Assembly: GCA_964392625.1 (NCBI GenBank)
Contig: CAYMQG010000080.1
Span: 13,335 to 77,334 of the forward strand
DNA from: an uncultured Gammaproteobacteria bacterium
GTDB taxonomy: Bacteria > Pseudomonadota > Gammaproteobacteria > Steroidobacterales > Foliamicaceae
DNA length: 64,000 nt
Direction: 5' to 3'
The position numbers were made by a program, and so were the translations under genes. Below the pieces are notes generated by a model. The model made no database searches, was not told where the DNA came from, and was given only the letters and a program-made list of their open reading frames with translations. The first letter of the stretch is position 1, and every line of letters starts with the position of its first letter. Shown here in pieces: positions 3,929-63,453 of this stretch.

Positions 3929-6950
<3,022 letters not shown>

Positions 6951-6964
6951 CTATCATTTTACAA

Positions 6965-13365: not shown

Positions 13366-13382
13366 CTCAACAAGTCTCCTGG

Positions 13383-13919
13383 TCAATTCTGCGTTACAAG
13401 TCGCTCCAGCAACAATTGTGCCTCGACATTAAGGGGGTCGAGCGCCAGTGCGCGCCGAAACCACTCCGCCGCGCTGTTGCTGTCCAGCGGCAGTTCGCAC
13501 ACGCCGCAGTTGGCGTAGACGGCCGCCCGGCGTATGCCCACGGCCTCCCGTGCGGCCCGTTCAAGCATCCTGAGGCCCTCGCGCGGCTTTCCGGCCCGGC
13601 GGCACTGGAAAACACCCAGGCTGTTGAGCGCCTCGACATCGCGTGGCGCCAAACGGACCGCGCGCCTGTAATGCCGCTCGGCCCGCTCCTGGTCCTCGAG
13701 GTGCTCGTAGGCCATGCCCAGGACGCGGTGGGCCTCCGATGAATCGGGATCCTGCTGAGTGGCCCGCACCAGCTTGTCGCGAGCCAGCTCCGGACGGCCC
13801 TGTGCCAGGTACGCCGCGCCCAGTTCCAGGTTCAATGCCGACGCGTCCGGACCGGCATTCAGGCCCGCCTGGCAGCCGACCGTCAGCAAGGCGGCGGCCA
13901 TGAACCACGGCAACCTCAT
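13383..13919 (-). CDS. pilW: Type IV pilus biogenesis/stability TPR lipoprotein PilW-like
   Basis: MRLPWFMAAALLTVGCQ lipobox followed by TPR repeats. ATGA overlap with the rlmN stop. The track ORF extends upstream, but that part overlaps rlmN. Confidence 0.7.
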   Translation of the reverse strand: MRLPWFMAAALLTVGCQAGLNAGPDASALNLELGAAYLAQGRPELARDKLVRATQQDPDSSEAHRVLGMAYEHLEDQERAERHYRRAVRLAPRDVEALNSLGVFQCRRAGKPREGLRMLERAAREAVGIRRAAVYANCGVCELPLDSNSAAEWFRRALALDPLNVEAQLLLERLVTQN

Positions 13920-46119: not shown

Positions 46120-46187
46120 AACGCGCCGCGACAGACGCGGCGCAGTACGGCTTCTACAGCGTCAATTCTACCATCAGGGGCATGCCC

Positions 46188-48225: not shown

Positions 48226-49323
48226 TCAGGGCCAGTCGCGCGAAACGCTGACGAAGGACCCCCTGGACTGCGAGGCCATCAGCCAGTAGTAGCCGGTGGC
48301 GGCCGGATCCCCGTCCATCGGGTAGAACAGCACATTGACCGGAATCCCCGAGGGCAGATCGCGCACCGCGCGGGTAAAGAACCGTTCGCGCGCCCGCGTA
48401 TCCACCCATCCGACGCGCGAGGGAGGGCTGGCGCCCTGCGTCGGCAGTCCGTCGGTCAGCAGGTACACGTTGTCCGGCAACGGCTGCATCGCGCGTATCG
48501 CGCGCATCGCCGCATGCAGGCTGGTACCGCCCCTCGGCGCGAACTCGCGCAAGGCCTCGATCGCTTCGGTCACCCGCGCACCGTCGGCGACGCTGAGCCA
48601 CTCCCCGTCCGTGCCCTCAAGAATGCTCCTGTGTTCCACCCCGAAGATATAGACCTGAAAACGCTGCTGCGGCTCCAGGCGCGTGGTGATCCAGTCGACC
48701 GAATTCACGACCTGGACCCACTTCGGGGCGCGGGGTTTGAGTTCCTCTTCCATCAGGCGAAAGCGCAACACGTCGATATAGGTGCGCCCCAGCATGCTTG
48801 CGGACGCATCCACGAGGATCATTACCCGGTCGCCGCCCATCTGCATGCCGGTCAGGTATTGCCGCGCGCCCTCGCCCTCGAAACCGCGCACGCGCTGCCC
48901 CGCTCCTTCCTCCGCCTCGGCGACCCGCGCCTCAAGTTCCTGCTGCATTTCCCTGAGCCGGTCCACGTCGGCCCGCAGCTTCTCTACCGACTCCTGGCTC
49001 TGCGTCCCCAGGCGCTCGTATTCCGCCAGTTCGGCCAGCAACGCGGCAAGCCGTTCGCGCAGCTTTCTCAGCTCCTCGATGGCCGTTGCGCGGCGCTCGT
49101 CGAGCGTATCGCGCTCACCCCGCAACTGCAGCAGGTCCTTTCGCCCCTCCAGGACCTCCTCTTCGAGGCGCGTGGACTCGCTGAGCAGATCGATACGCTC
49201 GGCGTCCGCCCGCAAGCGCACCTGGGCGTTGATGATCACGAAGAACAGCACGACCGCGCCGAAGCCGCAGGAAATGATGTCCAGAAACGACATGCTGAAT
49301 ACGTGAAAGCGCCTACGAGCCAT
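48226..49323 (-). CDS. ExbD/TolR/MotB-like TM(Asp) - coiled coil - von Willebrand factor A (vWA) protein
   Basis: The N-terminus MARRRFHVFSMSFLDIISCGFGAVVLFFVI has a basic cytoplasmic tip and an Asp at the start of the single TM, as in ExbD, TolR and MotB. About 110-120 aa of heptad-rich charged helix follow. The vWA domain has an intact MIDAS (VMILVDASAS ... GGTSL ... VYLLTDG). The start overlaps the upstream gene by 11 nt. Confidence 0.75.
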   Translation of the reverse strand: MARRRFHVFSMSFLDIISCGFGAVVLFFVIINAQVRLRADAERIDLLSESTRLEEEVLEGRKDLLQLRGERDTLDERRATAIEELRKLRERLAALLAELAEYERLGTQSQESVEKLRADVDRLREMQQELEARVAEAEEGAGQRVRGFEGEGARQYLTGMQMGGDRVMILVDASASMLGRTYIDVLRFRLMEEELKPRAPKWVQVVNSVDWITTRLEPQQRFQVYIFGVEHRSILEGTDGEWLSVADGARVTEAIEALREFAPRGGTSLHAAMRAIRAMQPLPDNVYLLTDGLPTQGASPPSRVGWVDTRARERFFTRAVRDLPSGIPVNVLFYPMDGDPAATGYYWLMASQSRGSFVSVSRDWP

Positions 49324-50725
49324 CGCCGCCCACCTCGCGCGTGATCAGGAACTCCAGCGGCCCCACGCCCACCACGTCCCCCCCGCGCAATGGCGCCGAA
49401 TCCGCCACCGGCGCGCCATTCAGGTTGGTTCCGTAACGGCTGTGGTCATGCAAAACCGCCTGTCCATTCTCCAGCACCACGGTGCAGTGGTGTCGTGAAA
49501 TTCCACCTTCCGGCGAGAGCACGATCGACAGGCCCCCGGACTGCGGAGACGAGCCGAGATGCAGGCCTTCAGCGCCTATCCGCCAGGCCCGGCCGCCGAA
49601 CACGACGTGCGTCGGCGTCCGTTCTCCCCCTTCCCCGTCGCCGCCGGCAGGCGGCGCAACTCCATCCGGCCGGGAAATTCGCCCCGTGTCCGGCCCGCCG
49701 GGCAAGTCGAGGGCCGGCAAGGACGTAAGCAGCACATAGCGATCCCTCGCTCCCGACGCAGGACCGAAACGCTCCAGCGCGCCCAGCGCCGCGGCGCCCG
49801 CCGGCAGGACCTGGACCTCGGCGGCGAGCAGGCGAGCGAACACGTCGGCGCAGCCGGGAACCTCGGCGAGGACCCCCGACAGGTATATGTCCGCTGCCTC
49901 GGGGCCCGTGCACCACGATCGCATGCGATTCCCCGCCCCCCCCAACAGCCGCTCGACCGAGACAAGAAAGTCATCGCGGCTCAGGATCGCAGTGGCGGTT
50001 ACGGGCGCCGCTTCAAGTTGGGCCCTGAGCTCGCCGCCGGTCAGGACAGCCTGAAGCCATGAGTCCAATCGGTCGGCCAGTTCCTGTTCGGTGGCGGGCA
50101 GATCCAATGGATCAAAACGGGAACCCGCCACGAACCGGCCGGCAACGTAGCCGGTCATGGCCGCTCGGAGGTGACGCAGTCCCGGGCGGCCGTCGTACAG
50201 AATCTCCTCGCGCCGGATTCGGCCGTCGCGCGGCATGAGCCGGGAAACCGCCAAACGCTCGGGGGTAGCTTCAATGTGCAGGCAGGCGCGGCCCGCCGCC
50301 GCGCCCCGCACCGCGGCCACCCCGCTTTCGACCAGCCCGGCCACCGGCAGCCCGGCTTCCTCGGCGATGCCCAGCAGCAGTGCAAGGCGGTCTTCCGCAA
50401 CGCCCGGCGGAATGACCAGCACCACACCGCTTATGTCTCCCACGGATTGCCGAAAGCGCTCCCACAGCCCCTGCATTTGCCCGTGGGCCAGGTCGGCATA
50501 GCTGCGATATCCCCGCGCCGGCCTGGGCAGGGGCTCATCCGACAGCATTTCCCAGTAATTGCGGTAACTGCGCGCGGGGTCGCGCCGCGCCTCTTCGGCC
50601 GCTTCCCGTCCGAACGCCACCCGGCGCTTTTGCACCAGCGCCACGCCCGGCTCGTTGAACAGCACTCCGGCGGCGGTAGCGCCTACCAGCGCCGCTCCAT
50701 TGACTTCCAGCGCGACCAGCGCCAT
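49313..50725 (-). CDS. Hsp70/actin-fold (degenerate ATPase motifs) protein with C-terminal FHA domain
   Basis: The N-terminal roughly 340 aa align by eye to the DnaK NBD (VVLVIPPGVAEDRLALLLGIAEEAGLPVAGLVESGVAAV vs [37 protein letters not shown]), but the phosphate-1/2 motifs are lost. The C-terminal FHA reads GGISRHHCTVVLENGQAVLHDHSRYGTNLNGAPV...GDVVGVG. No signal peptide. Confidence 0.7.
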   Translation of the reverse strand: MALVALEVNGAALVGATAAGVLFNEPGVALVQKRRVAFGREAAEEARRDPARSYRNYWEMLSDEPLPRPARGYRSYADLAHGQMQGLWERFRQSVGDISGVVLVIPPGVAEDRLALLLGIAEEAGLPVAGLVESGVAAVRGAAAGRACLHIEATPERLAVSRLMPRDGRIRREEILYDGRPGLRHLRAAMTGYVAGRFVAGSRFDPLDLPATEQELADRLDSWLQAVLTGGELRAQLEAAPVTATAILSRDDFLVSVERLLGGAGNRMRSWCTGPEAADIYLSGVLAEVPGCADVFARLLAAEVQVLPAGAAALGALERFGPASGARDRYVLLTSLPALDLPGGPDTGRISRPDGVAPPAGGDGEGGERTPTHVVFGGRAWRIGAEGLHLGSSPQSGGLSIVLSPEGGISRHHCTVVLENGQAVLHDHSRYGTNLNGAPVADSAPLRGGDVVGVGPLEFLITREVGGDGS

Positions 50726-50741
50726 GCCGGCTCGCCGCGGC

Positions 50742-51539
50742 TCAGTCGCCCTGCAGGCGGCGGATCAGCCGTTCGTCGCAGTAATCCGAGGTCTCGAAGA
50801 CCAGTCGCTCCTGCAACAACTGAAGCTGGTGGACCAGGAACATGATGAAAATGCTGACCAGCAGGGCAAAGAAGGTGGAATTGAAGGCCACGCCGAGGCT
50901 CTCGGTAACGCCGCTGATGTCGCCTTCCACGGCCCGATAGGCAAGCGTCAGCGCCTGGCCGATCCCGCGCACGGTGCCGATAAAGCCGATCGAGGGGATC
51001 GCCCAGGCGATGTATCGGATCATCGACAGTTCGGATTCCAGTCGCTCGGCTTCGGCGTTGACCAGCGTCTGTGTAGCCGAAGAGACGTCCTGCACATTGC
51101 CCGTGGCGCCGAAGCGCTGCAGCGCGCTGAGCAATACGCGCGGCAACAGCAGGCGTTGCTGCGATTCGGGCAGCGCACGCAATTGGCGCGCGTGCTCGCG
51201 CGTGTCCTCGGGCAGTATGCGCACGCCTTCCGCCAACGGCAGCAGATCGCGCTGCAGCAGCGAGCGCTCGCGCAGCGCCCCACGCGCCTTGTAGCCCATG
51301 ATCGCCAGCGCCCAGAGCGCCAGGATCAGGCAGGCCTCCTGCTCGAAGTCGCGCACGATCACGTACAGCGAGCGTTCGGGCACGTACTCGGCGTCCTGTT
51401 CCAGCAGTATCCGCTGCTCTTCCATGACCGCGTTGGCCTGCGGTCGGATCCAGGCCACGTACATCGCATGCACCAGGATCACCGACAGGAACAGCGAAAA
51501 AAGCTGAAAAACGAATTCGACCGGTAACTGTCTTCTCAT
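50742..51539 (-). CDS. MotA/TolQ/ExbB proton-channel family protein
   Basis: 265 aa. Two N-terminal TMs, a cytoplasmic insert, then the family core IRYIAWAIPSIGFIGTVRGIGQAL ... GVAFNSTFFALLVSIFIMFLVHQL (conserved Pro-x-x-G-x-x-GT and the last TM). Confidence 0.8.
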   Translation of the reverse strand: MRRQLPVEFVFQLFSLFLSVILVHAMYVAWIRPQANAVMEEQRILLEQDAEYVPERSLYVIVRDFEQEACLILALWALAIMGYKARGALRERSLLQRDLLPLAEGVRILPEDTREHARQLRALPESQQRLLLPRVLLSALQRFGATGNVQDVSSATQTLVNAEAERLESELSMIRYIAWAIPSIGFIGTVRGIGQALTLAYRAVEGDISGVTESLGVAFNSTFFALLVSIFIMFLVHQLQLLQERLVFETSDYCDERLIRRLQGD

Positions 51540-51546
51540 CGATTGC

Positions 51547-52065
51547 TCACTGGTGTCGCGGGGGGCGGGGCGTCAGGACACGCCGAAGATATGCGCTGCC
51601 CTCGTCCCAGCCCTTCGTGTGCGGCGACTCGGGAAACTCCAGCTCGGCCACCGCGCAGGTAGGGAACTTTCCGTAGAGCACCGCGAAAGCCTCCTCTTCG
51701 CCTTGGCCGGCCAGGTACAGCGCCAGTTCCTGCAGGGCGGGATTATGGCCCACCACCATGATGTCGCCGGTGCCCTCCGGCAGTGCGTGCAGGCACTGCA
51801 GCACGGTTCCCGGACTGAAGGTGTACAGCCGTCGCATGACCTCGATGCTGAGGTCGGCGGGAAGGCTGGGCAGGACACCGCACAGCGTCTCCACCGCCCT
51901 GCGTCCGGCGGAACACAGGATTCTCTCGGGGGCGCATCCCACGGCCGCCAGTTTCTCTCCCATCGCGGGCGCATTCTTCCGGCCCCTGGGGGCCAGCGCC
52001 CGGTCGAAATCGTCGGCGGAATACGGCCCCGCCTTGGCATGACGCAACAGCCACAGGCGCTTCAT
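51547..52065 (-). CDS. sixA: SixA-type histidine-phosphatase-superfamily protein
   Basis: MKRLWLLRHAKA (RHG/RHA catalytic motif) ... MVVGHNPAL. 172 aa from the ATG at 52065. The stop lies only 7 nt before the MotA-like start. The 1026-aa track ORF containing it is otherwise antisense to ppk. Confidence 0.8.
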   Translation of the reverse strand: MKRLWLLRHAKAGPYSADDFDRALAPRGRKNAPAMGEKLAAVGCAPERILCSAGRRAVETLCGVLPSLPADLSIEVMRRLYTFSPGTVLQCLHALPEGTGDIMVVGHNPALQELALYLAGQGEEEAFAVLYGKFPTCAVAELEFPESPHTKGWDEGSAYLRRVLTPRPPRHQ

Positions 52066-52167
52066 GACGGAACGAGGGGGGCGCGCCCTCCTCTCCAGGA
52101 ATTGCTCATAACTCCTGTATGCTACTCCGATCATGGGGCACATTCCACGCCATCCCGGAACACGCAA

Positions 52168-54375
52168 ATGACGCCCGCGTCCGCCAAGCCGCGAGCGTTG
52201 AGCGAGGTGGAACGCGTCGCCGGCCGCCTGATCAACCGCGAGCTGTCCTGGCTGGAATTCAACACGCGGGTGCTGGAGGAAGCCGGCAACGAAAACCACC
52301 CGCTGCTGGAGCGCGTGCGGTTTCTGTCCATCTCCGCCAGCAACCTCGACGAGTTCTACATGGTGCGCGCGGCCGGGCTCATGGCCCAGGTGGCGGCAGG
52401 CGTCACAAAGACCAGTGCCGACGGGCTGACCCCCGGCGAACAGCTCGAAGCCATACGCGAACAGGTAAAGAGGCTTCTCAAGGCCCAGTCCGGGCGCAGC
52501 GCGCAGTTGCTGGCCGAATGCCGCGAGGCCGGGGTGGCGGTGGTAAAGCCCGAGGAACTGGGCAAGCAGGCCCGTGAGTGGCTGTCGCGATGGTTCGAGA
52601 ACCAGTTGTTTCCGGTGCTGACTCCCCAGGCGGTCGATACGGCGCACCCCTTCCCCTTCATTCAGACCGGCTGCCTGGTGTACGTGCTGCGGCTGATGCG
52701 GCCCGCGGACAAGCACGAGATCAACGGCCTGGTCCTTGTCCCCCCGCAGATCGAGCGGTTCGTGCGTGTTCCCGGCAAGGCCCTGCGCTTCGTCGCCGTC
52801 GAGGAAATCATCGCCCGCAACTTCAGGCTGCTGTTCCCCGGAATGAAGATCCTGGGCCACGGCATCTTCCGCATCAGCCGCGACAGCGACCTTGAAATCG
52901 ACGAAGAAGCCGAGGACCTGGTACGGACCTTCGAGACCGCCCTGCTGCGGCGCCGCAGAGGCAACGTCATACGGGTGGAAGTGGCGGCCGGCATGCCGAA
53001 GAACTTCCGCCGGTTCGTTCTCAAGGCGTTCAACGCCTCGCACGCGCATGTCTTCAACATCGACGGCATGCTGGGGCTGGCGGACATCAAGCAGATCATC
53101 ACGGACCAGCGCCGCGACCTGCAGCACGAGCCGCTCAACGTGCGCTTCCCCGAACGGGTACGCGAGTATGGAGGCGACATTCTCGCCGCCATACGCGCCA
53201 AGGACTTCGTCGTGCAGCATCCGTACGAGAGCTTCGACGTGGTCGTGCAGTTCCTGCGCCGCGCCACCGACGACCCGGCGGTCGTGGCCATCAAGCAGAC
53301 CCTTTACCGCACTTCCGAGGACTCGCCGATCGTCGAGGCGCTGATCGCCGCCGCCGAGGCCGGCAAGCTGGTCACCGCCATGGTCGAGCTTCGGGCGCGT
53401 TTCGACGAAGCGGCGAACATCCGCTGGGCGCAGGAGATGGAGCGCGCCGGCGTGCAGGTCGTCTACGGCTTCATGGAACTCAAGACCCACGCCAAGGTAT
53501 CGCTGGTGGTGCGCAGGGAAGCGGGCGAATTGCGGACCTATACGCACTTCGGCACCGGCAACTACCATCCGGTCAACGCGCGCGTCTATTCGGACCTGAG
53601 CTTCTTTACCTGCGACGCGGCCCTGGGGCGCGACACCGCGCGCCTGTTCAATTACATGACAGGCTACGCGACGCCCGAGGACATGGAAAAGCTGGTTTAC
53701 GCGCCGGCTCAGATGAAAAGCAGCCTGGTCGAGTTGATCGAGGAGGAAGTCGTCCATGCCCGCGCCGGGCGTCCGGCGGAGATCTGGGCCAAGCTCAACT
53801 CGCTCGTGGACCCCGAGATCATCGACTGTCTCTACCGGGCGAGCCAGGCCGGGGTGCGGATCGAACTCTACGTCCGGGGGATTTGCTGCCTGCGCCCGGG
53901 CGTACCCGGCATGTCTGAGAACATCCAGGTGCGCAGCATGGTCGGCAGGTTCCTGGAGCACTCGCGCGTCATGTGTTTCGGCGCCGGCCACCAGCTTCCT
54001 TCCACAGAGAGCAAGGTTTACGTATCGTCCGCCGACTGGATGCCCCGCAACCTGCATCATCGCGTGGAGACACTGGTGCCGATCGAGAACGAGACGGTCA
54101 AGCGGCAGCTCGTGGAGCAGGTCCTGATGGCGAACCGCTTCGACGTGATGCAGAGCTGGCAACTCGGACCCGACGGCGCTTACCGCCGCCTTGACCATCA
54201 ATCGGGCGATTTCAGCGCCCACACCTGGTTCATGACCAATCCGAGCCTTTCCGGCCGCGGCAGCGCCCTGCGGGAGTCGCGTCCGGCCATGCCCGGCGAA
54301 CTGTTTCCCGAGACCGGGGGGCCCACCGCCGCGGAAGACGAACCCCGCCCGACACTGGTCAAAGCCGCCGTCTGA
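52168..54375 (+). CDS. ppk: Polyphosphate kinase 1
   Basis: INRELSWLEFNTRVLEEA...PLLERVRFLSISASNLDEFYMVR, the autophosphorylated-His region ELKTHAKVSLVVRRE, and two PLD-like HKD-type C-terminal domains. ATG at 52168. The upstream 205 codons of the track ORF are rejected. Confidence 0.95.
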   Translation: MTPASAKPRALSEVERVAGRLINRELSWLEFNTRVLEEAGNENHPLLERVRFLSISASNLDEFYMVRAAGLMAQVAAGVTKTSADGLTPGEQLEAIREQVKRLLKAQSGRSAQLLAECREAGVAVVKPEELGKQAREWLSRWFENQLFPVLTPQAVDTAHPFPFIQTGCLVYVLRLMRPADKHEINGLVLVPPQIERFVRVPGKALRFVAVEEIIARNFRLLFPGMKILGHGIFRISRDSDLEIDEEAEDLVRTFETALLRRRRGNVIRVEVAAGMPKNFRRFVLKAFNASHAHVFNIDGMLGLADIKQIITDQRRDLQHEPLNVRFPERVREYGGDILAAIRAKDFVVQHPYESFDVVVQFLRRATDDPAVVAIKQTLYRTSEDSPIVEALIAAAEAGKLVTAMVELRARFDEAANIRWAQEMERAGVQVVYGFMELKTHAKVSLVVRREAGELRTYTHFGTGNYHPVNARVYSDLSFFTCDAALGRDTARLFNYMTGYATPEDMEKLVYAPAQMKSSLVELIEEEVVHARAGRPAEIWAKLNSLVDPEIIDCLYRASQAGVRIELYVRGICCLRPGVPGMSENIQVRSMVGRFLEHSRVMCFGAGHQLPSTESKVYVSSADWMPRNLHHRVETLVPIENETVKRQLVEQVLMANRFDVMQSWQLGPDGAYRRLDHQSGDFSAHTWFMTNPSLSGRGSALRESRPAMPGELFPETGGPTAAEDEPRPTLVKAAV

Positions 54376-54381
54376 CAGCCA

Positions 54382-55887: not shown

Positions 55888-56259
55888 CTAAATATCGGTT
55901 GGCCACACTACCGGGTTGTCGGCCGACAGGGGCTCCGAAGGCGTGAACTCCTCCAGCACCTCATCGCTGCCCAGCGCCTCCTCGATGCGGGCCAGGTCTT
56001 CCTCGATCGAGGTCACCTCCGTGGACAGCTCTTCCTCCACGGGAGATCCGTCTTCTCCCCGGGCCGGCGCATCGGCCGGAGTTGCATTGGAGGGCGGGAT
56101 GCTCTCCCGCCCAGCGGGCACGCCCTCGTTGTCGGGCGCCGCGTCCTCTGCGGTCCTGTCCTGCTGCGCGAGCCCCAGCCATCCGCCCACACGTTCGGCG
56201 GCCCAGGTCAGGCCAACGGCCAGGCCGATAACGGCGACAACTGCGACGACCTTCTTCAT
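55888..56259 (-). CDS. Small N-terminally anchored/secreted acidic protein (hypothetical)
   Basis: MKKVVAVVAVIGLAVGLTWAA followed by a Pro/Asp/Glu-rich tail (…EEELSTEVTSIEEDLARIEEALGSDEVLEEF…). The ATG at 56259 forms an ATGA overlap with the stop of the FGE-domain gene. Confidence 0.6.
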   Translation of the reverse strand: MKKVVAVVAVIGLAVGLTWAAERVGGWLGLAQQDRTAEDAAPDNEGVPAGRESIPPSNATPADAPARGEDGSPVEEELSTEVTSIEEDLARIEEALGSDEVLEEFTPSEPLSADNPVVWPTDI

Positions 56260-58676
56260 TCGGGTTCCTGCAACTCGGCGTAGCGCGCCAGGCGAAATCC
56301 TACATCGAGCCTCTCCTCCTCGCCAAAATCGCGGAACGCCCAGCGCAGTTCGCGCAGCGTCCCGTGCAGCCAGCCCGAACCGCGGATCACGTAAAAACGC
56401 CCCTCCTGCGGACCGCGCGGGTCCACCTCGAAGCCGGGATAAAGCGTATCGGTGCCGTAGTAATCGCCCGTCCACTCGGCCACGTTGCCGCCAAGATCGT
56501 AGAAGCCCAGCGGGTTGGCCGGAAACGAACCGACCGGGGCCGTGAAGGGAAAGAAGTCGTTGTAGGCGCTCAGCACGTTGGTGACGAGGCTGCCGGCCGA
56601 CTGGTCCGCGTAGTTGCCGGAGCGTGCCGGAGGAGGCATGCGCTCACCCCAGGGATAGCGCGAATTCCCCGCGCCGCCCCGGTAGCGGGCCGCCCAGACC
56701 CACTCCGCCTCGGTCGGCAGGCGATAGCCGGTCCCCGGCTCGGTCACCGGAATCAGCCGGCCGGAACGGCTCTGATACTGAAGCGGCAGGTTTTCCTGCG
56801 AACTCAGCCAGTTGCAGAAGGCCGCGGCGGCCTGCCAATCGACGTTCACCGCGGGGCTGCTGTCGGCCGCCAACGAACGGAAGCGCTCGGCCCCGGAGGT
56901 GTGGTTGGGAATGAAAGCGCGAAATTCCCGGTTGGTGACTTCCTTGACGCCCAGGTAGTAGCGTTTCGTGAGCCTCACCCTGCGGCGCACCTCGTTGTTG
57001 CGCCATCCCTGCGAACCGCGCTGCGATCCCATCTCGAACTCGCCGGGGAACAGCATGACCATTGACGCTCCCTGCGACGTTTCGATTTCCGTGGGCTGGG
57101 CGGCCAGCATCTGCTGCCGCGGCGTCAGGAGTTCCACTTCCACCTCCTGCGGATAGGCGGGCTGCGGAACGACCTCGCGCGACTGCGCCACGTAGCCTTC
57201 CAGGCTGAATTCGAGCTGTTGCTCGGTTGAAGGCAATTGAAGGTCCAGCGGGGTCCGACCGGCTGGCTGTCCGTTGACGCTGACCTGCGCTCCGGACGGA
57301 CGGCTCAACAGGCGAATGGTACCCAGACGCGGCTCGAGACGAATGGTCAGGGACTGCTCGGCGCCCCGACCCAGCGTCACCGTGCGTTCCTGCGACTCGT
57401 AGCCCGCCCGGGCCACCACCACGCGGTGCGCCCGGTCCGGGCTCACCTCCACGGTCGCAGGCGATCCTCCGCGAAAGTCCCCGTCCACGGTAATGCTGGC
57501 GCCCGGCGGGTCCGTCCGCACGCGAAGCACGCCTGCGGCAGGTTGCAGGCGGATGACGGGCAGGACCTGCGGCGAGCCGGCAACCACGGTCAGCCGTTCG
57601 CGATGCGTGGCGAATCCCGGCCTGGAGAACGACAGCATGCGTTCGCCGGACAGCAATTCCACGGTTGCCGGAGTTGTTCCCAGGACCTGTCCTTCCGATC
57701 GCAATTCAGCCCCCGGCGGATCGCTGCTGGCGAGGACCTCCGCCCAGTCCGGCTCCAGTTCGGCTCTGAACGGCTCCAGGTCGCCGCCGCCCTCCACGGC
57801 CAGCGCAATGCTCAGGTCCTTGTAGCGGAGCGCGCTTACGCTCAGGGCGTAAGTGCCCGGGCTCAGCGAGATTTCCTCGCCGGGGGAAAACACCTGGTCC
57901 ACGCCCTCGATACGAATCTCCGCGCCGGCCACGGCATCCACGACCACCCGTCCGGGCAAAAGCCGCATCGCGAAGCGAAATTCCTGACTGCCTTCGCCCC
58001 CCACCTCGATCTCTTCGTCCAGCGGGTAATAACGTTCCCGTTCAGCCCTGACCCGGTACCGGCCTTTCCAGAGAAGATAGCGGGACCCCACGTGCGGAGT
58101 GGGCAGCAGCGCGTCAACCTCAACGGCAACGTCGGCGGGCTCCACTTCAATCAGCACGCCTTCCGCGGTAAACACGAAGACGGCGCTGACGCCCAGCAGC
58201 GCCAGCAGCACGCCTGCCGCCAGGCGCAACCACAGGCGGCCCTTGTGCGCCGGCACGGAGCGCGAATCTCCGGCAGGCCGGCGAACCGCTATTTCGGCCG
58301 TGGCGTCTTCGTCGTCGGCCAGTTCGGGCGGCCTCGTGTCCCAGGCCTGCGCCAGGTAGCTCACATTCAGGCGCATAGCTTCGGGCGAAAGCGAGTCCAC
58401 CGTTACCTCCGCTCCGGCAATGGCGAGCCGATCGCCTTCCTCCAGCCACTGTGCGCCGCTGATCGGCTCGCCGTTCAGCAGAAGGCCGGAAATGCCCGGA
58501 TAGCACTGCACCAGGGCCCGGTCGTCGAGGAGATTGATGCTGGCCGCCGGAGGCGCGCCGGCCGGGCCGGGGAGGCGAATATGCGCGCCCGCGCCGCTGC
58601 CCAGCAGCACGGGCAGCTTGTCCGCCGCGAGCGTGCGCTCGCCCTCGGGCAGCACGAGAACCACATCACGCGCCAT
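56256..58676 (-). CDS. FHA-like N-terminal domain - TM - multiple PEGA domains - C-terminal FGE/SUMF1 (formylglycine-generating-enzyme-like) domain protein
   Basis: 806 aa. The N-terminal roughly 100 aa are beta-rich and FHA-like (LLNGEPISGAQWLEEGDRLAIAGAEVTV), but the canonical SRxH is not evident. TM is LWLRLAAGVLLALLGVSAVFVF. Repeated PEGA-type units are present (e.g. LRVRTDPPGASITVDGDFRGGSPATVEV). The C-terminus carries FGE-sulfatase motifs (YRLPTEAEWVWAAR, GNVAEWTGDYY, RGSGW). Confidence 0.8.
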   Translation of the reverse strand: MARDVVLVLPEGERTLAADKLPVLLGSGAGAHIRLPGPAGAPPAASINLLDDRALVQCYPGISGLLLNGEPISGAQWLEEGDRLAIAGAEVTVDSLSPEAMRLNVSYLAQAWDTRPPELADDEDATAEIAVRRPAGDSRSVPAHKGRLWLRLAAGVLLALLGVSAVFVFTAEGVLIEVEPADVAVEVDALLPTPHVGSRYLLWKGRYRVRAERERYYPLDEEIEVGGEGSQEFRFAMRLLPGRVVVDAVAGAEIRIEGVDQVFSPGEEISLSPGTYALSVSALRYKDLSIALAVEGGGDLEPFRAELEPDWAEVLASSDPPGAELRSEGQVLGTTPATVELLSGERMLSFSRPGFATHRERLTVVAGSPQVLPVIRLQPAAGVLRVRTDPPGASITVDGDFRGGSPATVEVSPDRAHRVVVARAGYESQERTVTLGRGAEQSLTIRLEPRLGTIRLLSRPSGAQVSVNGQPAGRTPLDLQLPSTEQQLEFSLEGYVAQSREVVPQPAYPQEVEVELLTPRQQMLAAQPTEIETSQGASMVMLFPGEFEMGSQRGSQGWRNNEVRRRVRLTKRYYLGVKEVTNREFRAFIPNHTSGAERFRSLAADSSPAVNVDWQAAAAFCNWLSSQENLPLQYQSRSGRLIPVTEPGTGYRLPTEAEWVWAARYRGGAGNSRYPWGERMPPPARSGNYADQSAGSLVTNVLSAYNDFFPFTAPVGSFPANPLGFYDLGGNVAEWTGDYYGTDTLYPGFEVDPRGPQEGRFYVIRGSGWLHGTLRELRWAFRDFGEEERLDVGFRLARYAELQEPE

Positions 58677-58693
58677 GTTTCACGCCCCCCGCG

Positions 58694-61006
58694 TCAGATG
58701 GGATCCGTGCAGACCAGAACCAACGGCTCCGGCAGTCCTTCCGGCTCCACGACGAACTCGCGGCGCACGTCACGAAAGCCGTCACGGGTCCCGACGGCGG
58801 TGTAGGCGCCGGGGCGTAGCTCAAGCATGCGACTGTCGAAACTTCCCAGGCGGCCAACGTGAAAAATGGTCACTTCGGTGAGACCGTCGGAACGCAGCCA
58901 CACCGGCGCCGGCGTGGCTGCCACCGCCAGGGCCTGCTCGAGGCGGCCGATCTGCCCGTTAAGGCGCGCGCCCGGACCGGGAATGGCCGCGGCTTCGTCC
59001 AGCAGCCGTTTGCCGCGCTGCCAGGCATCGTCCCGGTTCAACGTCCGGGCGTTCGCGATGGTGGTTTCCAATGCATCGTCCAGCCGCGCACGCCCCTCGG
59101 CCTCCGCCAGCCCGCGTTGCGCTGCGACGATGTTCGAGTCGATCTCAAGCATGCCGCGGTAATTGGCGGCCGCCCTGGGCCAGTCTTCCGCGAACCTGCC
59201 CGCCATCGCGGCCGCCTGGAACTGCGCCAGCCGCTGCCCGCGTTCCTCCAGTTCCAGCGCGGCAAGCGCTTCGACCGGCCCGGGATCGTTCGGACGCTGT
59301 TTCCGTGCGGCCTCGAACGCAGTCCGGGCCGCTTCGACATCGCCCTCTCCCAGCGCCGCATGACCGCGCGACATTCGCGAGTTGAACAGTTGCTGATCGA
59401 TCCGGGCATTGACCGTCGACAACTCCCTGCGGGCGGACTGCCGTTCCGGGTCGACCTTGAGCACCGCCTGCCAGGCGGCCCGCTGCTCCTCCAGGCTGCC
59501 TTCCCGCGCGCTGGCCCGCGCTTCGGCCACGGCCTGCATGGTTTCCGGCAGCCGGGCGGCCCGGCGGGACGCGGACTGCACCTCCGGATCGCTCGCTCCG
59601 AGAAGAATGCCGGCCTTTTCGAGTTCCGCCAGAGCACCGGCCTGATCGCCCGATTCGATAGCCTGCAGGGCTTCTTCCAGGGCCCCGCGGCCAATATCGG
59701 GAGCCTCTTCCCGCAGTTGGCGCAGCATCTCCGCCGCCTTTCCGTATGCGCCCTGCGCGTCCGGATATTCGCGCCTGCGATAGAAATCGTCCCCTTTCCG
59801 CTCCTCGGCCATGGCCTGCTCCCAGGCCCCGCCCGACCACATGGAGGGCTGCAGGGCCGCCAGGTAATTTCGGTCCTGCAGCATATCGCCCATGGCCTCA
59901 TCGGCCGCCTCGCGCTGCATTCTCAGCAGCTGCATGTCCTGGCGGGGCGCCTCGGCCTCCTGGATGATGCGTTCGGGCGGAGGACGCCTGCTTGCGCGTT
60001 CTTCCGCGAAGCGCGGCGCCGCGAAAAACAGGACCGCGGCCGCCGCCAGCAGGAGTCCGCCCAATGCATAAGCCACCCACAGCGGCACGCCGGAACTGCG
60101 TTGCAACGCCGGCGGCGCACCGCCGGGGTCGCCGGCGCCGGCTCGAGCTCGCGCGACAATGGCGGCGGCCTGTGACGGGCCTTCGGCGGTGGCGGATTCT
60201 GCCAGTATCTCTTCCAGGGCTGCACGCACGGCCGCCATGGTCACCGGCCTCAGGGCTTCGTCCCGCGCGAGCATCGCGGTAACCAGTTCGGCCAGCTCAT
60301 CGGGAAGCTGCGGCCGCCCTTCGGGGGCGGCGGGAGCTGCCAGCTCCGTGCTGCGAATGGCCTCTTCGCTGATGTCCGGCGCGAATGGCGGATAGCCGCA
60401 CAACAACTCGTAGATGACGCAACCCAGCCCATACACGTCGTCGCTGGTCCGGGCGGAGCGGCCCTCAAGCCGTTGCGGGCTCATATAGGCCAGCGAGCCT
60501 CCGGGACGCCGGACACGCCCGTCGTCGGCATCCGGCAGCACTGCGGCGCCGAAGTCCGTCAGGCAGGCGGCGCCCGACTCGTCCAGCAAAATGTTCTGCG
60601 GCTTGATGTCGCCATGCACCACGCCTTTGCGGTGCGCGTACGCCAGGGCGTCGCAAACCGGCAGCAGGCGCCTCGCGGCGTCGTTCCAGGGTTCGCCGGA
60701 CCGCTCTCCTACATGACCGCCCGGCAGGACGGGCATGGTGAAGAAATGGCTGTTGCCGTCGGAAACGAACTCCTCCGGGCGCACGACGGCCGGATGGACC
60801 AGCGACTGGGCAACGGAGAACTCGCGCCGGAAGCGGTCGATACGCGCCGGATGCCGGGCATATTCATCCGCCAGCAACTTCAGGGCCACTTCACGGCCTT
60901 CCCGCATATCTTCCGCAAGCCACACCTCGCCCAGCCCGCCGGAGCCCAGCGGGCGGACCAGGCGGAACCGATCCGCCAGCATCTCGCCTTGCCTTTTTTG
61001 GGTCAT
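58694..61006 (-). CDS. Transmembrane Hanks-type Ser/Thr protein kinase with periplasmic TPR-like region and C-terminal PEGA-like domain
   Basis: Gly-loop LGSGGLGEVW, VALK lysine, catalytic HGDIKPQNILL, DFG, and activation segment ...YMSPQRL. TM is LWVAYALGGLLLAAAAVLFFAAP. A long helical-repeat ectodomain follows. The C-terminus is EVTIFHVGRLGSFDSRMLELRPGAYTAVGTRDGFRDV. Confidence 0.88.
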   Translation of the reverse strand: MTQKRQGEMLADRFRLVRPLGSGGLGEVWLAEDMREGREVALKLLADEYARHPARIDRFRREFSVAQSLVHPAVVRPEEFVSDGNSHFFTMPVLPGGHVGERSGEPWNDAARRLLPVCDALAYAHRKGVVHGDIKPQNILLDESGAACLTDFGAAVLPDADDGRVRRPGGSLAYMSPQRLEGRSARTSDDVYGLGCVIYELLCGYPPFAPDISEEAIRSTELAAPAAPEGRPQLPDELAELVTAMLARDEALRPVTMAAVRAALEEILAESATAEGPSQAAAIVARARAGAGDPGGAPPALQRSSGVPLWVAYALGGLLLAAAAVLFFAAPRFAEERASRRPPPERIIQEAEAPRQDMQLLRMQREAADEAMGDMLQDRNYLAALQPSMWSGGAWEQAMAEERKGDDFYRRREYPDAQGAYGKAAEMLRQLREEAPDIGRGALEEALQAIESGDQAGALAELEKAGILLGASDPEVQSASRRAARLPETMQAVAEARASAREGSLEEQRAAWQAVLKVDPERQSARRELSTVNARIDQQLFNSRMSRGHAALGEGDVEAARTAFEAARKQRPNDPGPVEALAALELEERGQRLAQFQAAAMAGRFAEDWPRAAANYRGMLEIDSNIVAAQRGLAEAEGRARLDDALETTIANARTLNRDDAWQRGKRLLDEAAAIPGPGARLNGQIGRLEQALAVAATPAPVWLRSDGLTEVTIFHVGRLGSFDSRMLELRPGAYTAVGTRDGFRDVRREFVVEPEGLPEPLVLVCTDPI

Positions 61007-61084
61007 TCAGTCGCCTGGCACGGGCGTGCTTGCCGTGCTTCCGGCTTCAAATGATACGGGCGGGACGCTGCTCCCGCTTCCGTT

Positions 61085-62314
61085 TCAGGGGCGCGACAGG
61101 GACGTGCCCTCAGGCTCTTGCGCACCCGGCGTTTCAAGGTCGCCGGTCTCGCGGGCGTAGATGTCCCGCAACAGGCGGCGCCATTCACGAAACCTCTCCT
61201 CGGCGGATCCGGTCAAACGGCGGGTCTGACCTTCGAGCTCCACCACCATGGGCTCGGCCTCGGCATCGAAGGATTCGCCCACTTCGCGCAGCGCCTCGGC
61301 GTGCATCCTGGCTTCCTCGCGCCGCCCCAGGCTTCCCTGAATTCCCATGAAGCCCCCCTGGATCATGGTGCCTGTCACGCCCATGTTGTCGCCGCCGCTG
61401 GCTTCGTACGCGACAGCGCCCAGAATCCCGAGGACTCCGAGCAGCATGCGCGTATTCGCCGACCTGCGCATTTCCTCGTAACTCAGGCGGCCTTCCCGGG
61501 CCATCCGCCGCCAGTCGGTGTAGGGCCGGTCCAGCCCGTAGTAGAGGTTGGCGTAATGCTCGTTGACGGCGTCTATCAACGCGTATTCCCGCTCCCGCAC
61601 CTCGCGCATGCGGGCGACCATGGGATCGTCGGCAGCCGGCAGGCGCCTGACCTCGTACTGCCCGTCGCCGGTCTCTTCCAGATAGCCGCTGAAAGCCTGC
61701 GGCACGAGGCTCTGCCCGTAGCGCAGGTCGCTGATCTCGCGCACGCGCTGCAAATCGCCGGGACTGAACTGCGCGCGCGCCTGCAGCAGGTCGTTGGCGA
61801 TCTGGTTATAGATGTTCTGGTAGGGATCCTGACCGGGGCCGGTGTTGCGAATGTATGCCTGCTCCGCAACCAGCATTTCATAGTTCTTTTCGAACCACTG
61901 GCGGCCGGACGAGTCCCAGGCGCCGACACGCAGCTGCGCGCTATAGCCGTCCGATTGGTTGATCCTGCCCGAAATCACGACATCCGCAACCGGACTGTAT
62001 TCGGGAAGGACGCTTACCGCTCCCCAATAGCCGGTAGTCTCAAGCGTGCTCTTGAGGTGGTACGGCATGTAGCGCGCTTCGGCGCGGCGAATCTCGGGAA
62101 AGATGAAGCGGTCGTTGAGTTCCTGATCGCTCGCCTCTTCGGGCAGCCCCGCATCAAACACCAGGATGCCGACGTTCAGCAGCGATTCCGATGCAATTTC
62201 GGTCTCCGCGCGCTGCAGCCCCACCTGGGTGTACTGGACCTCGCGCGCGGACGTGCAGGCGCCCAGCACAATGATGCAGGCGGCCAGACCGAGAGTCGTG
62301 ATCGACCGGTTCAT
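61085..62314 (-). CDS. Lipoprotein of unknown function with a C-proximal glycine-zipper segment
   Basis: The ATG at 62314 gives MNRSITTLGLAACIIVLGACTS (lipobox). The later segment LLGVLGILGAVAYEASGGDNMGVTGTMIQGGFMGIQG resembles glycine-zipper membrane hairpins. ATGA overlap with the upstream gene's stop. Confidence 0.65.
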   Translation of the reverse strand: MNRSITTLGLAACIIVLGACTSAREVQYTQVGLQRAETEIASESLLNVGILVFDAGLPEEASDQELNDRFIFPEIRRAEARYMPYHLKSTLETTGYWGAVSVLPEYSPVADVVISGRINQSDGYSAQLRVGAWDSSGRQWFEKNYEMLVAEQAYIRNTGPGQDPYQNIYNQIANDLLQARAQFSPGDLQRVREISDLRYGQSLVPQAFSGYLEETGDGQYEVRRLPAADDPMVARMREVREREYALIDAVNEHYANLYYGLDRPYTDWRRMAREGRLSYEEMRRSANTRMLLGVLGILGAVAYEASGGDNMGVTGTMIQGGFMGIQGSLGRREEARMHAEALREVGESFDAEAEPMVVELEGQTRRLTGSAEERFREWRRLLRDIYARETGDLETPGAQEPEGTSLSRP

Positions 62315-63453
62315 TTTGTTTTCAACCCCATGTGCTTGCGATATTCGTCCCACAATGCCTCGCGTATGCGGGGGTCTTCTTCCTGCTCCGCCGCTTCGCG
62401 AATCTGCCGCGCCACCTGGTCCTCCTTGCCGGTAACCTCCGCAATATCTTCCGGAATCTCGATCTTCGTCTCCGGCTGCTCGCCGGGCGAGCCGTCTTCC
62501 GTCGGCCCGCCTTCTCCTTCGCCTCCGCCGGAGCCGCCACCGCTTCCGGAACTGCTTCCGCCTGCGCTGCTGCCGTCCGATTCGCTGCCCGGGCTTTGGC
62601 CGTCACCGCCAAGACCCCCGCCGCTCGCGTTGGGGATAGTCACCATAGCCCCGCCGGAGCCGCCGGACTCGCCGATCATTCCGCCCGTGCCTCCGGAACC
62701 GGCGGCGGACCCCTGTCCGGCCGATGCCATGGCGCCACGCTCACGGGCAATTTCGCGGTCGTAACCCTCCATGGATTCACGCAGGATTCCCTCGAGGTCG
62801 CCACTGCCTTGTGTGCCGCCTGCACCTCCTCTGCCGCCGGGCTCGCTACCCTGCCCGCCTCCGAAGCCACCGCCGACTCCCGTGGAACCGGCCTGCTGAC
62901 CTCCGGAACCGCCCGGCCGGCCCGAAGGCCCGCCCGCCGAACCGCTGGCGCCTCCCATGGAACCCATGGAACCCTGGGCGCCGCCCTGCGATCCCATCGA
63001 GCCCATCGAACCTCGCGAACCGCCTGGTGTTCCCATGGAGCCACCCATGGAGCCCATCGAACCGCCGGCTGAACCCATCGAACCCCGCGATCCACCGGTT
63101 GAACCCATCGAGCCCATGGAACCGCCGGACGAGCCCATTGAGCCCCCCATCGAACCGCGAGAACCGCCGGAAGAGCCCATCGAACCGCCCATGGAGCCAC
63201 GCGAGCCCCCGGAGGAACCCATGGACCCTTGCGAACCGCCCATGGAACCCTGAGAACCGCCCATGGAGCCCTGCGAACCGCCCATGGAGCCCTGCGAGCC
63301 CCCGGAGGACCCCGAACTGCCGCTGGGCGAAGGCATCGAAACCGGGGGGCCGCCGGACGGCGAGGAAACGCCTCCGGTGGTCTGGCAATTCGCCAGAACC
63401 AGCACTGCGGAGAGCGCCATACAAAAGCCTGAAATACGCACTGTTGCTTTCAT
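62311..63453 (-). CDS. Lipoprotein with extreme Gly/Ser/Met-rich tandem repeats and a conserved-looking charged C-terminus
   Basis: The ATG at 63453 gives MKATVRISGFCMALSAVLVLANCQ (lipobox). Roughly 125 aa of (G-S-M-G / GGSQ / GGSR) repeats follow, then a second Gly/Ser/Asp-rich tract. The C-terminus is EDIAEVTGKEDQVARQIREAAEQEEDPRIREALWDEYRKHMG. Confidence 0.65.
   Translation of the reverse strand: MKATVRISGFCMALSAVLVLANCQTTGGVSSPSGGPPVSMPSPSGSSGSSGGSQGSMGGSQGSMGGSQGSMGGSQGSMGSSGGSRGSMGGSMGSSGGSRGSMGGSMGSSGGSMGSMGSTGGSRGSMGSAGGSMGSMGGSMGTPGGSRGSMGSMGSQGGAQGSMGSMGGASGSAGGPSGRPGGSGGQQAGSTGVGGGFGGGQGSEPGGRGGAGGTQGSGDLEGILRESMEGYDREIARERGAMASAGQGSAAGSGGTGGMIGESGGSGGAMVTIPNASGGGLGGDGQSPGSESDGSSAGGSSSGSGGGSGGGEGEGGPTEDGSPGEQPETKIEIPEDIAEVTGKEDQVARQIREAAEQEEDPRIREALWDEYRKHMGLKTK
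62947..63327. repeat. Imperfect in-frame tandem repeat (9-nt periodicity, higher-order 18-33 nt units) encoding the GSM-rich tract
   Basis: The plus strand shows reiterated cat(g/c)ga(a/g)cc(n) units, e.g. catggaacccatggaaccctgggcgccgccctgcgatcccatcgagcccatcgaacctcgcgaaccgcc... This generates spurious ORFs in several frames on both strands (62724..63485, 62846..63424, 62957..63253). Confidence 0.85.

Follow-up and report, generated by a model that had tools for sequence, protein, structure and literature searches.

A TolQ/ExbB-type subunit and a coiled-coil-vWA partner in a conserved, kinase-linked gene cluster: a candidate trans-envelope motor of uncultured Gammaproteobacteria

The stretch of DNA analysed here (the window) comprises 64,000 nucleotides of contig CAYMQG010000080.1 (positions 13,335 to 77,334 of the forward strand; GenBank assembly GCA_964392625.1) from an uncultured gammaproteobacterium of the family Foliamicaceae. 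Positions 48226-52065 of the window hold four closely spaced minus-strand genes that encode, in order of transcription, a SixA-like histidine phosphatase, a MotA/TolQ/ExbB-type (A) subunit, a cytoplasmic protein that joins the fold of an Hsp70 nucleotide-binding domain (NBD) to a forkhead-associated (FHA) domain, and a protein in which a single transmembrane helix is followed by a coiled coil and a domain of the von Willebrand factor A (vWA) type. An earlier note, made from the sequence alone, had described these genes as a compact operon for an atypical proton-driven stator. We find that the last three belong to a conserved cluster of nine genes, and we consider it probable, though well short of certain, that they form the inner-membrane motor module of a conserved, chromosomally encoded trans-envelope machine. 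The best explanation for the combined evidence, which we hold with moderate confidence, is a proton-driven motor of the 5:2 type whose B subunit bears its own periplasmic output. The core idea of the earlier note is right and was anticipated in silico in 2025 (PMC12204202).

Results

The TolQ/ExbB-type subunit and its candidate partner

The four open reading frames (ORFs) lie where the earlier note had placed them, with the spacing that it gave: the coordinates yield a gap of 7 nt between the SixA-like and MotA-like genes, a gap of 16 nt before the Hsp70-like gene and then an overlap of 11 nt. The peptides quoted at that time, AIPSIGFIGTVRGI, GVAFNSTFFALLVSIFIMFL and SFLDIISCGFGAVVLFFVI, were found in the translations of the window, and the domain calls MotA_ExbB, FHA and His_Phos_1 were borne out by profile search scores above the Pfam cutoffs. 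NCBIfam holds no specific model for any of the four products and returned weak TolQ/ExbB and TagH-FHA matches and a sub-threshold SixA match.

The identification of the second product as a TolQ/ExbB-type A subunit is upheld by its Pfam match, its fold and the position of two threonines. MotA_ExbB (PF01618) matches residues 133-247 with 54.8 bits against a cutoff of 22.9. The AlphaFold2 (AF2) model, built with 50 homologues, has a predicted local distance difference test (pLDDT) score of 90, and its top 50 fold matches in the PDB are almost all ExbB or TolQ proteins, followed by PomA, MotA and ZorA; the best template modelling score (TM-score, target-normalised) is 0.71, to TolQ of Acinetobacter baumannii. 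When the protein was aligned to Escherichia coli TolQ with hhalign, T189 fell on T145 and T222 on T178, and both T189 and T222 are invariant in the 50-sequence alignment. T145 and T178 of TolQ and their counterparts are the two threonines that are essential in TolQ and ExbB. The model contains four hydrophobic helices, as an additional N-terminal one (H7-48) precedes the TolQ-like core, and because the N-terminus is basic it suggests a four-helix topology with the N-terminus inside the cell.

The vWA protein has features expected of a partner of this subunit, a basic N-terminus and a single transmembrane helix, as noted earlier, and its aspartate Asp15 (D15) is near-invariant. Elsewhere it is usually accompanied by a second vWA protein, here called Z, and the two families are full-length paralogues (hhalign probability 99.8%, E 7.5e-30). 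In both, a basic tail is followed by the motif [FL]S[LM]SFLDxxxCGFGAxxL, of which C19, G20 and A23 are invariant in 55 N-termini drawn from both paralogues and D15 is kept by no fewer than 90%. In the highest-scoring local alignments of the profiles, D15 falls on D23 of E. coli TolR and on D25 of ExbD, over 7-10 residues and without significance (hhalign E ~0.06). In locus L036, the vWA copy (12197-12346) has Ala in the place of the transmembrane Asp and its partner Z (13294-13443) retains the Asp, which hints that the two helices of a putative heterodimer are not equivalent.

Neither an ExbD/TolR periplasmic domain nor an OmpA-like domain was found in the vWA protein by Pfam and NCBIfam scans, and their usual position is occupied, as had been claimed, by a coiled coil and a vWA domain. 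The coiled coil measures ~110-120 residues (about 33-150) and matches profiles of the Crescentin rod, SMC and GCN4/sigma-1. The residues of the metal ion-dependent adhesion site (MIDAS) in the window protein are D172, S174, S176, T267 (in a GGTSL motif) and D291; the family alignment shows no variation at S174, S176 and D291 and at least 90% conservation of D172, whereas T267 is the majority residue only. Z carries D-T-S-G-S at the equivalent position, and VWA_2 is matched by 25 of the 47 Z-family members at E <= 0.01. Both paralogues combine an intact MIDAS with a transmembrane aspartate that, by position and context, is likened to that of TolR/ExbD.

The product encoded between the motor and vWA genes was correctly recognised as an Hsp70-fold protein with degenerate ATP motifs and an FHA domain. 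Its AF2 model (48 sequences) has a pLDDT of 86 and a predicted TM-score (pTM) of 0.81, and in a Foldseek search of the PDB residues 1 to ~335 match the NBDs of DnaK, Hsc70, Ssz1 and Sse1 (E ~2e-14; TM-score to the target 0.64-0.71 for the DnaK and Hsc70 NBDs). A disordered linker (residues 342-367) leads to the FHA domain at ~370-465, where PF00498 scores 38.1 bits (cutoff 20.7) and a profile search of the PDB gives E 2e-7; the Ser/His pair conserved in FHA domains is S410 and H413 here. Opposite the phosphate-2 loop of DnaK, D194-LGGGT, the alignment shows IEATPE for the window protein and 'D..LH' for the family consensus, so that the glycine-rich phosphate-2 loop is lost. No substrate-binding domain is present in the protein, the FHA domain standing in its place.

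A conserved nine-gene cluster

The wider gene order was derived from contigs with relatives of ~72% identity, on which a longer set of genes runs in one direction, and the proteins were mapped by tblastn onto 84 loci. The ancestral order reads lipoprotein A, lipoprotein B, a receptor Ser/Thr kinase (STK), a protein with FHA, transmembrane, PEGA and formylglycine-generating-enzyme (FGE)-sulfatase segments, a small protein, the MotA-like protein, the Hsp70NBD-FHA protein, the vWA protein and Z, nine genes in all. The unit was thus described too narrowly as a compact four-gene operon: its conserved genes make up one half of this cluster, and 4.3 kb upstream (55888-63453) is the second half.

Synteny was counted over loci from other species with enough flank, 64 downstream and 56 upstream. 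In all 64 of the former the MotA-like gene is followed by a vWA gene, while 63 have the Z paralogue and 60 the Hsp70-like gene. Of the 56 loci scored upstream of the MotA-like gene, 55 have the FGE protein, 55 the C-terminal part of the STK homologue and 52 lipoprotein B. Since the vWA gene follows in 64/64 and the Hsp70-like gene in 60/64 loci, the arrangement is far beyond chance; accidental juxtaposition of the genes is excluded, and the MotA-like, Hsp70NBD-FHA and vWA genes form a conserved trio. No tolR, exbD or motB gene occurs in the clusters of the window or of the related loci.

The MotA-like protein is 95-100% identical to proteins from many uncultured gammaproteobacterial metagenome-assembled genomes (MAGs), and the closest species-level loci among the matches listed (97-98% identity) belong to 'Candidatus Foliamicus' and relatives. 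Used as a query, it retrieved 159 clusters at E <= 1e-30 among 1.84 billion cluster representatives. Complete matches among the best 150 clusters span the full query length at ~35-60% identity, and the family can therefore be regarded as a distinct subfamily within the MotA/TolQ/ExbB family. Two peptide patterns of the subfamily matched at least 600 stretches in a collection of species representatives, at least 598 of which encode a relative, the sources being Woeseiaceae, Pseudomonadales (Azotimanducaceae), Acidobacteriota, Desulfobacteraceae (Desulfobacterota) and other taxa. From this pattern search 80 loci were kept, all from MAGs. The position of the cluster is chromosomal and stable across families, and searches of plasmid and phage collections returned no homologue of the vWA protein.

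Points against a motor and the case for a passive scaffold

Several results weigh against a 5:2 motor. Apart from the short alignments of the helix, Pfam scans of the 50-residue vWA and Z N-termini with ExbD and TolR gave no match, and a profile of the 55 N-termini found only a chance match to NDUFB4 among the PDB sequences; because of these results the likeness to an ExbD helix is drawn from its position and context. For the window protein, the 5:2 stoichiometry and the placing of Asp15 opposite a ring of threonines are likewise predictions. The vWA call stood for the family and less clearly for the window protein, which scores 25.3 bits with VWA_2 and 25.1 bits with VWA_3, just under the cutoff of 27, whereas 42 of 45 vWA-family members match VWA_2 at E <= 1e-3 (best E 1.8e-8). 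The profile of the full-length vWA family matches mostly coiled coils in the PDB, with a sole vWA match at E 0.38. A related cluster on a contig of 1.26 Mb (L089:2844-14192) holds A, B, STK, FGE, small protein, Hsp70-FHA, vWA and Z genes and an extra lipoprotein gene, with no MotA-like gene within the cluster. The lineage of the window has no Z and would therefore need a homodimer, which is plausible. As set out below, seven loci keep an FHA domain in clusters that encode no kinase domain, and the test for co-variation of the two domains takes no account of phylogeny. Finally, no phenotype, ligand or phosphorylation target is on record for any member.

That the transmembrane helix resembles TolR and ExbD only weakly in statistical terms would also suit a system that is no motor at all. 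In such a system the TolQ-like protein would be a passive scaffold or ion channel, and the vWA proteins would be adhesion or chaperone-client modules, anchored in the membrane like those of the Bat or MoxR-vWA type, with the Hsp70-like protein as their organiser. A chaperone-type partner is suggested by the Hsp70-like fold, and the Bat proteins of aerotolerance are an example of membrane-anchored vWA proteins outside motors. Chaperone-linked (MoxR) vWA systems outside motors have also been described (Kaur et al. 2020). However, the clusters contain no MoxR or other AAA+ gene, the Hsp70-like domain has neither the glycine-rich phosphate loop nor a substrate-binding domain, and without proton translocation it would be difficult to account for the invariant pore threonines and the near-invariant transmembrane Asp. 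We regard a passive scaffold as very improbable. The MoxR-vWA ternary conflict system itself was rejected as a candidate, as there is no MoxR gene here and MotA/ExbB is unmentioned in the paper that describes it (Kaur et al. 2020).

A kinase and FHA layer, and the possibility of inward signalling

The earlier note had proposed that the motor is gated from the cytoplasm by Ser/Thr phosphorylation; this is plausible because a receptor Ser/Thr kinase sits in the same conserved cluster. By the tblastn criterion, 40 of 56 loci have the kinase domain, and a stricter re-scan with hidden Markov models (HMMs) found it in 44 of 59. In the HMM data, 43 of the 59 loci encode both the kinase domain and the FHA domain of the Hsp70-like protein, one the kinase domain only, seven the FHA domain only and eight neither; the two domains co-vary (Fisher p = 2e-5, in a test that treats the loci as independent of phylogeny).

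Several loci of Azotimanducaceae and Desulfobacteraceae encode an STK homologue without a kinase domain together with an Hsp70-like protein without an FHA domain. The kinase-less STK homologues of L054, L060, L065, L073, L074 and L084 (about 5950-7640) keep the transmembrane helix and the ectodomain. A short cytoplasmic motif, I-x-A-P-x-x-A-P-L-[ST]-H-L, is retained in L054, L060, L065 and L084 and, with variation, in L074; in L073 only I-I-A-P of it is recognisable, and the Hsp70-like proteins of these six loci are also FHA-less. The minimal variants, L085-L087 (Porticoccaceae and relatives of Oceanicoccus), are without the kinase domain, the N-terminal FHA domain of the FGE protein and the Hsp70-FHA gene. 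They keep the kinase-less STK homologue, PEGA-FGE, the MotA-like protein, vWA and Z, and lipoprotein B is present in L085 and L086 (the upstream flank of L087 is short). Judged by gene content, the core of the system is made up of the motor subunit, both vWA proteins, the FGE protein and lipoprotein B, joined in most loci by the small protein. Because of the reduced variants and the joint loss of kinase and FHA domains, the kinase and FHA layer is regarded as an accessory regulatory shell, which the window has.

The main rival to a motor that does work in the envelope is an inward sensor, in which the vWA heads and the FGE ectodomain monitor the envelope for damage, phages or ligands and a ZorAB-like relay passes the information to a phospho-signal of kinase, FHA and Hsp70-NBD proteins. 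A set of kinase, FHA, vWA, FGE-sulfatase and lipoprotein genes is typical of signalling modules, and the PpkA/Fha1/TagQR threonine-phosphorylation pathway of type VI secretion in Pseudomonas has the same domains, a parallel that our literature search did not confirm. The ZorAB structure is among the fold matches of the A subunit (rank 48), and ZorA (ZorA2) is the only family that a PADLOC scan of the four products matched, very weakly (E 0.017). This match is not significant, and the clusters contain no effector genes such as a nuclease, ZorC/ZorD-like genes or those of type VI secretion. The chromosomal position is stable, plasmid and phage homologues of the vWA protein were not found, and the variants without kinase, FHA and Hsp70-like components imply that the signalling layer is accessory to the motor. 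We consider an inward sensor unlikely. A defence system is disfavoured by the lack of effectors, the stable synteny, the absence from plasmids and phages and the variants without kinase and FHA, and anti-phage defence was rejected as an assignment since there is no real PADLOC match and the cluster is not on mobile elements.

The layout of the Foliamicus clade

In the window, the genes ppx and ppk and the SixA-like gene separate the small-protein gene from the MotA-like gene, and the upstream half of the cluster lies on the same (-) strand as the motor genes. The same derived layout with the insertion was found in L005, L007 and L088, and no locus outside Foliamicus has the insertion. In L088 (Ca. 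Foliamicus sp.) the insertion carries Pfam matches to PP_kinase and Ppx-GppA. L006 has the same SixA-MotA-FHA-vWA part followed by a short-chain dehydrogenase (SDR) gene, and its flank is too short to show the kinase. The Foliamicus clade has a single vWA gene and then the SDR gene, which in the window starts 64 nt past the vWA gene in the place of the missing Z. As a picture of the family, the single B component of the earlier note is incomplete: elsewhere there is usually a paralogue pair, the second member of which was lost in the lineage of the window.

SixA had been counted as a part of the system, and this did not stand. It is present solely in L005, L006, L007 and L088, all of the Foliamicus clade, and absent from the other loci; because only these carry it, together with ppk and ppx, SixA is a lineage-specific neighbour that is co-transcribed in the lineage of the window and no conserved component. 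Its translation starts at the methionine of MKRLW..., and the mechanical ORF list stretches it to 54627. It matches His_Phos_1 with 29.0 bits against a Pfam cutoff of 21.7 and has RHA at residue 8 and GHN at residue 106.

An autonomous four-gene unit, in which SixA would reset the phosphorylation state read by the FHA domain, is an improbable reading of this layout. Proteins can serve as substrates of His_Phos_1 enzymes, the SixA-like protein retains the catalytic RHA and GHN motifs, and the ancestral cluster encodes no phosphatase. The SixA gene is 7 nt from the MotA-like gene in the window and overlaps it by 4 nt in L088, and this adjacency is kept across the clade despite a divergence of the FHA protein down to 61% identity. 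Against autonomy, SixA is missing from all loci outside Foliamicus, came with ppk and ppx and is transcribed divergently from ppk, and the kinase, FGE and lipoprotein genes upstream are still intact in the window, so that the trio is not autonomous. The SixA-like protein also scores under the cutoff of the NCBIfam sixA equivalog (TIGR00249; 51.7 against 74.5), and a link to phosphothreonine would be conjecture.

Identities between the window and L088 (8679-12509) amount to 96% for the MotA-like protein, 81% for the vWA protein, 71% for SixA and 61% for the Hsp70-FHA protein, i.e., evolutionary rates inside one operon (48226-52065 in the window) are very uneven. Two long antisense ORFs, 51547-54627 (-; 1026 aa, opposite ppk) and 43576-46191 (+; 871 aa, opposite a GyrA/ParC-like gene), are artefacts of the G+C content of 66% and no genes. 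Promoter and terminator scans were uninformative in DNA of this composition.

The upstream half of the cluster

The genes of the window that belong to the cluster, together with those inserted into it, are listed in Table 1.

Table 1 Coordinates and basis of assignment of the cluster genes and of the inserted genes in the window
Gene product	Coordinates	Strand	Length	Basis
TM (transmembrane)-coiled-coil-vWA protein, B-subunit candidate	48226..49323	-	365 aa	Family Pfam scans, MIDAS, N-terminal Asp15
Hsp70-NBD-fold + FHA cytoplasmic protein	49313..50725	-	470 aa	AF2/Foldseek, Pfam FHA
MotA/TolQ/ExbB-type A subunit	50742..51539	-	265 aa	Pfam PF01618, AF2 fold
SixA-like histidine phosphatase	51547..52065	-	172 aa	Pfam His_Phos_1, RHA + GHN motifs
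ppk (polyphosphate kinase); inserted, outside system	52168-54375	+		ORF list
ppx (exopolyphosphatase); inserted, outside system	54382-55875	+		ORF list
Small secreted acidic protein	55888..56259	-	123 aa	tblastn to L002 homologue; signal peptide
FHA-TM-PEGA-FGE-sulfatase bitopic protein	56256..58676	-	806 aa	Pfam, PDB profile search
Receptor Ser/Thr kinase	58694..61006	-	770 aa	Pfam Pkinase E 6.6e-40
Lipoprotein B	61085..62353	-	about 415 aa	tblastn, 54% identity to L002 homologue
Lipoprotein A	62311..63453	-		Translation, lipobox LANC

The small protein has an acidic low-complexity middle and ends, in the window, with FTPSEPLSADNPVVWPTDI. Its C-terminus is conserved as F-x-P-[ST]-E-x-[IV]-x-x-D-x-x-[VI]-x-F-P-x-D-I-COOH, and 61 of 74 loci, one minimal variant included, gave a match to this motif between the genes for FGE and MotA when searched with a crude regular expression. 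The protein has no Pfam match. It is an attractive idea that the acidic FPxDI C-terminus could be a ligand of the vWA MIDAS or of the FGE-sulfatase domain.

The FGE protein gave Pfam matches to FGE-sulfatase (E 5e-43) and PEGA (E 2e-39), has a transmembrane helix at 152-169 and, by PDB profile search, an N-terminal FHA domain (E 6e-6 against Ki-67, FhaA, EmbR and GarA); the FHA domain is assigned to the cytoplasm and the FGE-sulfatase domain to the periplasm. True formylglycine-generating enzymes need a copper-binding cysteine pair. As the FGE domain of the window protein has a single cysteine, no catalytic copper-binding pair is possible and the domain is probably a binding module. The kinase retains VALK40-43, HGD131-133 and DFG151-153, and its transmembrane helix (314-330) is followed by a periplasmic region resembling tetratricopeptide repeats (TPR). 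Lipoprotein B has a lipobox cysteine and a glycine-rich hydrophobic segment close to its C-terminus, and no relative of it was found in the Pfam or PDB sequence searches. Lipoprotein A, which has no Pfam match, consists mostly of long G/S/M-rich repeats (of the GGSxGSM type), and its conservation is limited to the last ~50 residues; the C-terminal 51 aa are 65% identical to A of L002.

Discussion

Relation to known motors

Closest to the system of the window is an architecture described by computation in 2025 (Mol Biol Evol; PMC12204202), in which TolQ-like genes, unaccompanied by tolR or exbD, sit in close linkage with paired vWA proteins that are tethered to the membrane by a helix and whose TolR/ExbD-like 'trans-pore helix' (TPH) bears a conserved Asp; an AlphaFold3 (AF3) 5:2 model from Idiomarina loihiensis was presented and a function was not assigned. 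The two have in common the TolQ-like protein without tolR/exbD, the Asp-bearing transmembrane-vWA protein, the usual heterologous pair and the occurrence in Proteobacteria. By its description, the published architecture matches that of our minimal variants L085-L087. In contrast to it, the window has a single vWA gene and has the Hsp70NBD-FHA gene between the motor and vWA genes. The published AF3 model of a TolQ-like protein with TPH-vWA proteins lends independent support to the reading as a motor.

Whether the family had already been described, a question raised by the earlier note, can be answered for its core: motor and vWA proteins were published, the further partners not. The text of PMC12204202 mentions no kinase, Hsp70-like, PEGA/FGE-sulfatase, lipoprotein or small-protein partners, and 'FHA' appears in it only as FhaC. 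Full-text searches yielded no paper that joins MotA/ExbB with vWA, FHA and Hsp70, and neither Kaur et al. (2020) nor the atlas of bacterial Ser/Thr kinases describes the system. As far as the literature could be searched, the complete set of conserved genes, the second FHA domain, the Hsp70-NBD identity, the co-variation of kinase and FHA, the FPxDI small protein and the single-paralogue layout of Foliamicus split by ppk/ppx appear to be new.

The exclusion of Tol-Pal, TonB and Zorya by the earlier note holds, as their partner genes are missing from the clusters and PADLOC gave no significant match. The system resembles TolQ-TolR and ExbB-ExbD in the fold of the A subunit, in both threonines and, by short alignments without significance, in the putative position of the transmembrane Asp of the B subunit. 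It differs from them in that the window B subunit has no TolR/ExbD domain and carries the arm (coiled coil and vWA) fused to it, in the additional N-terminal hydrophobic helix of the A subunit, and in that TolA, TonB, TolB, Pal and a TonB-dependent receptor are absent from the cluster genes of the window and the related loci. Zorya is a 5:2 motor of the MotAB type put to a non-flagellar use, as the present system would be, and the two are linked by the distant fold match and the weak ZorA match. The window system is, however, without the long ZorA tail, ZorC, ZorD, ZorE and the peptidoglycan-binding domain of ZorB, and its cluster lies outside a defence-island setting, with no homologues in plasmids or phages.

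A further comparison is offered by the Agl-Glt machinery of Myxococcus xanthus, whose AglR5-AglQ-AglS motor is a TolQ-like pentamer with a heterodimeric TolR-like axle (PMC11761067; PMC9946355). For GltG, docking of its cytoplasmic FHA domain on the AglR pentamer, at the cytoplasmic face, has been predicted (PMC11761067), and the distal adhesin CglB is a vWA protein (PMC11761067; PMC9946355). Agl-Glt shares with the present system an FHA-bearing bitopic partner, TPR and lipoprotein partners and a distal vWA domain, and it is a precedent for FHA docking on a motor and for a distal vWA domain. However, its vWA domain is on the separate outer-membrane lipoprotein CglB and that of the window system is borne by the axle, and Agl-Glt is without Ser/Thr kinase, Hsp70-like and FGE-sulfatase components. 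No TonB C-terminal-type domain was found in the Pfam scans of the window cluster or in the Pfam records of the related loci, the comparison with Glt being made by description.

A possible mechanism

In the 5:2 motor that we favour, five copies of the TolQ/ExbB-like protein would form a proton channel around two transmembrane helices of vWA proteins, which in most other genomes would be a heterodimer of vWA and Z. Protonation and deprotonation of Asp15 against the ring of T189 and T222 could be converted into rotation or force, as in TolQR, ExbBD and MotAB. A coiled-coil stalk of ~110-120 residues, roughly 15 nm long, would be capped by the metal-dependent (MIDAS) vWA head. Because the B subunit has neither a TolR/ExbD nor an OmpA-like domain, the arm that transmits force or provides anchorage would be built into the axle, with no separate TolA- or TonB-like protein. 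Likely periplasmic partners would be the PEGA/FGE-sulfatase protein, the kinase ectodomain, lipoproteins A and B and the small FPxDI protein. On the cytoplasmic side, the kinase and the two FHA domains (of the FGE and Hsp70-NBD proteins) may act as a layer of phosphothreonine control or docking, which probably gates the assembly or activity of the motor; by analogy with GltG on AglR, the FHA domains might dock on the cytoplasmic face of the pentamer. The role of the machine would most likely lie in envelope tethering, adhesion or envelope surveillance.

The fullest version of this scheme is a regulated rotary machine that spans the envelope and belongs to a class not characterised before, in which the proton-driven TolQ-like pentamer would turn or pull a heterodimeric coiled-coil shaft whose MIDAS/vWA heads engage the FGE protein, the lipoproteins and the FPxDI protein, and would be switched by the eukaryote-like receptor kinase through two FHA domains and an Hsp70-NBD clamp. 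We put this version forward tentatively, with clearly less confidence than the motor as such.

Conclusions

Ion-driven motors of the 5:2 type are at work in flagella, in TonB-dependent uptake, in Tol-Pal maintenance of the envelope, in type 9 secretion and gliding and in Zorya defence, and each newly understood one showed another way of coupling the proton gradient of the inner membrane to distant work. Distinctive of the present system is that the output domain, a coiled coil with a metal-dependent vWA head, would be placed directly on the axle. The family is widespread, with a relative encoded in at least 598 of 600 pattern-matched stretches, and occurs in Gammaproteobacteria, including the Woeseiaceae that dominate in marine sediments, as well as in Acidobacteriota and Desulfobacterota; a Ser/Thr kinase and FHA readers are linked to it in the majority of the loci examined. 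Knowledge of all its genes offers handles on its function, namely Asp15, the threonines, the MIDAS, the kinase and the FPxDI peptide. If the regulated rotary machine is true, it would be the first 5:2 motor under phosphothreonine control, with a cellular role distinct from those of the Tol, Ton, flagellar, gliding and Zorya systems.

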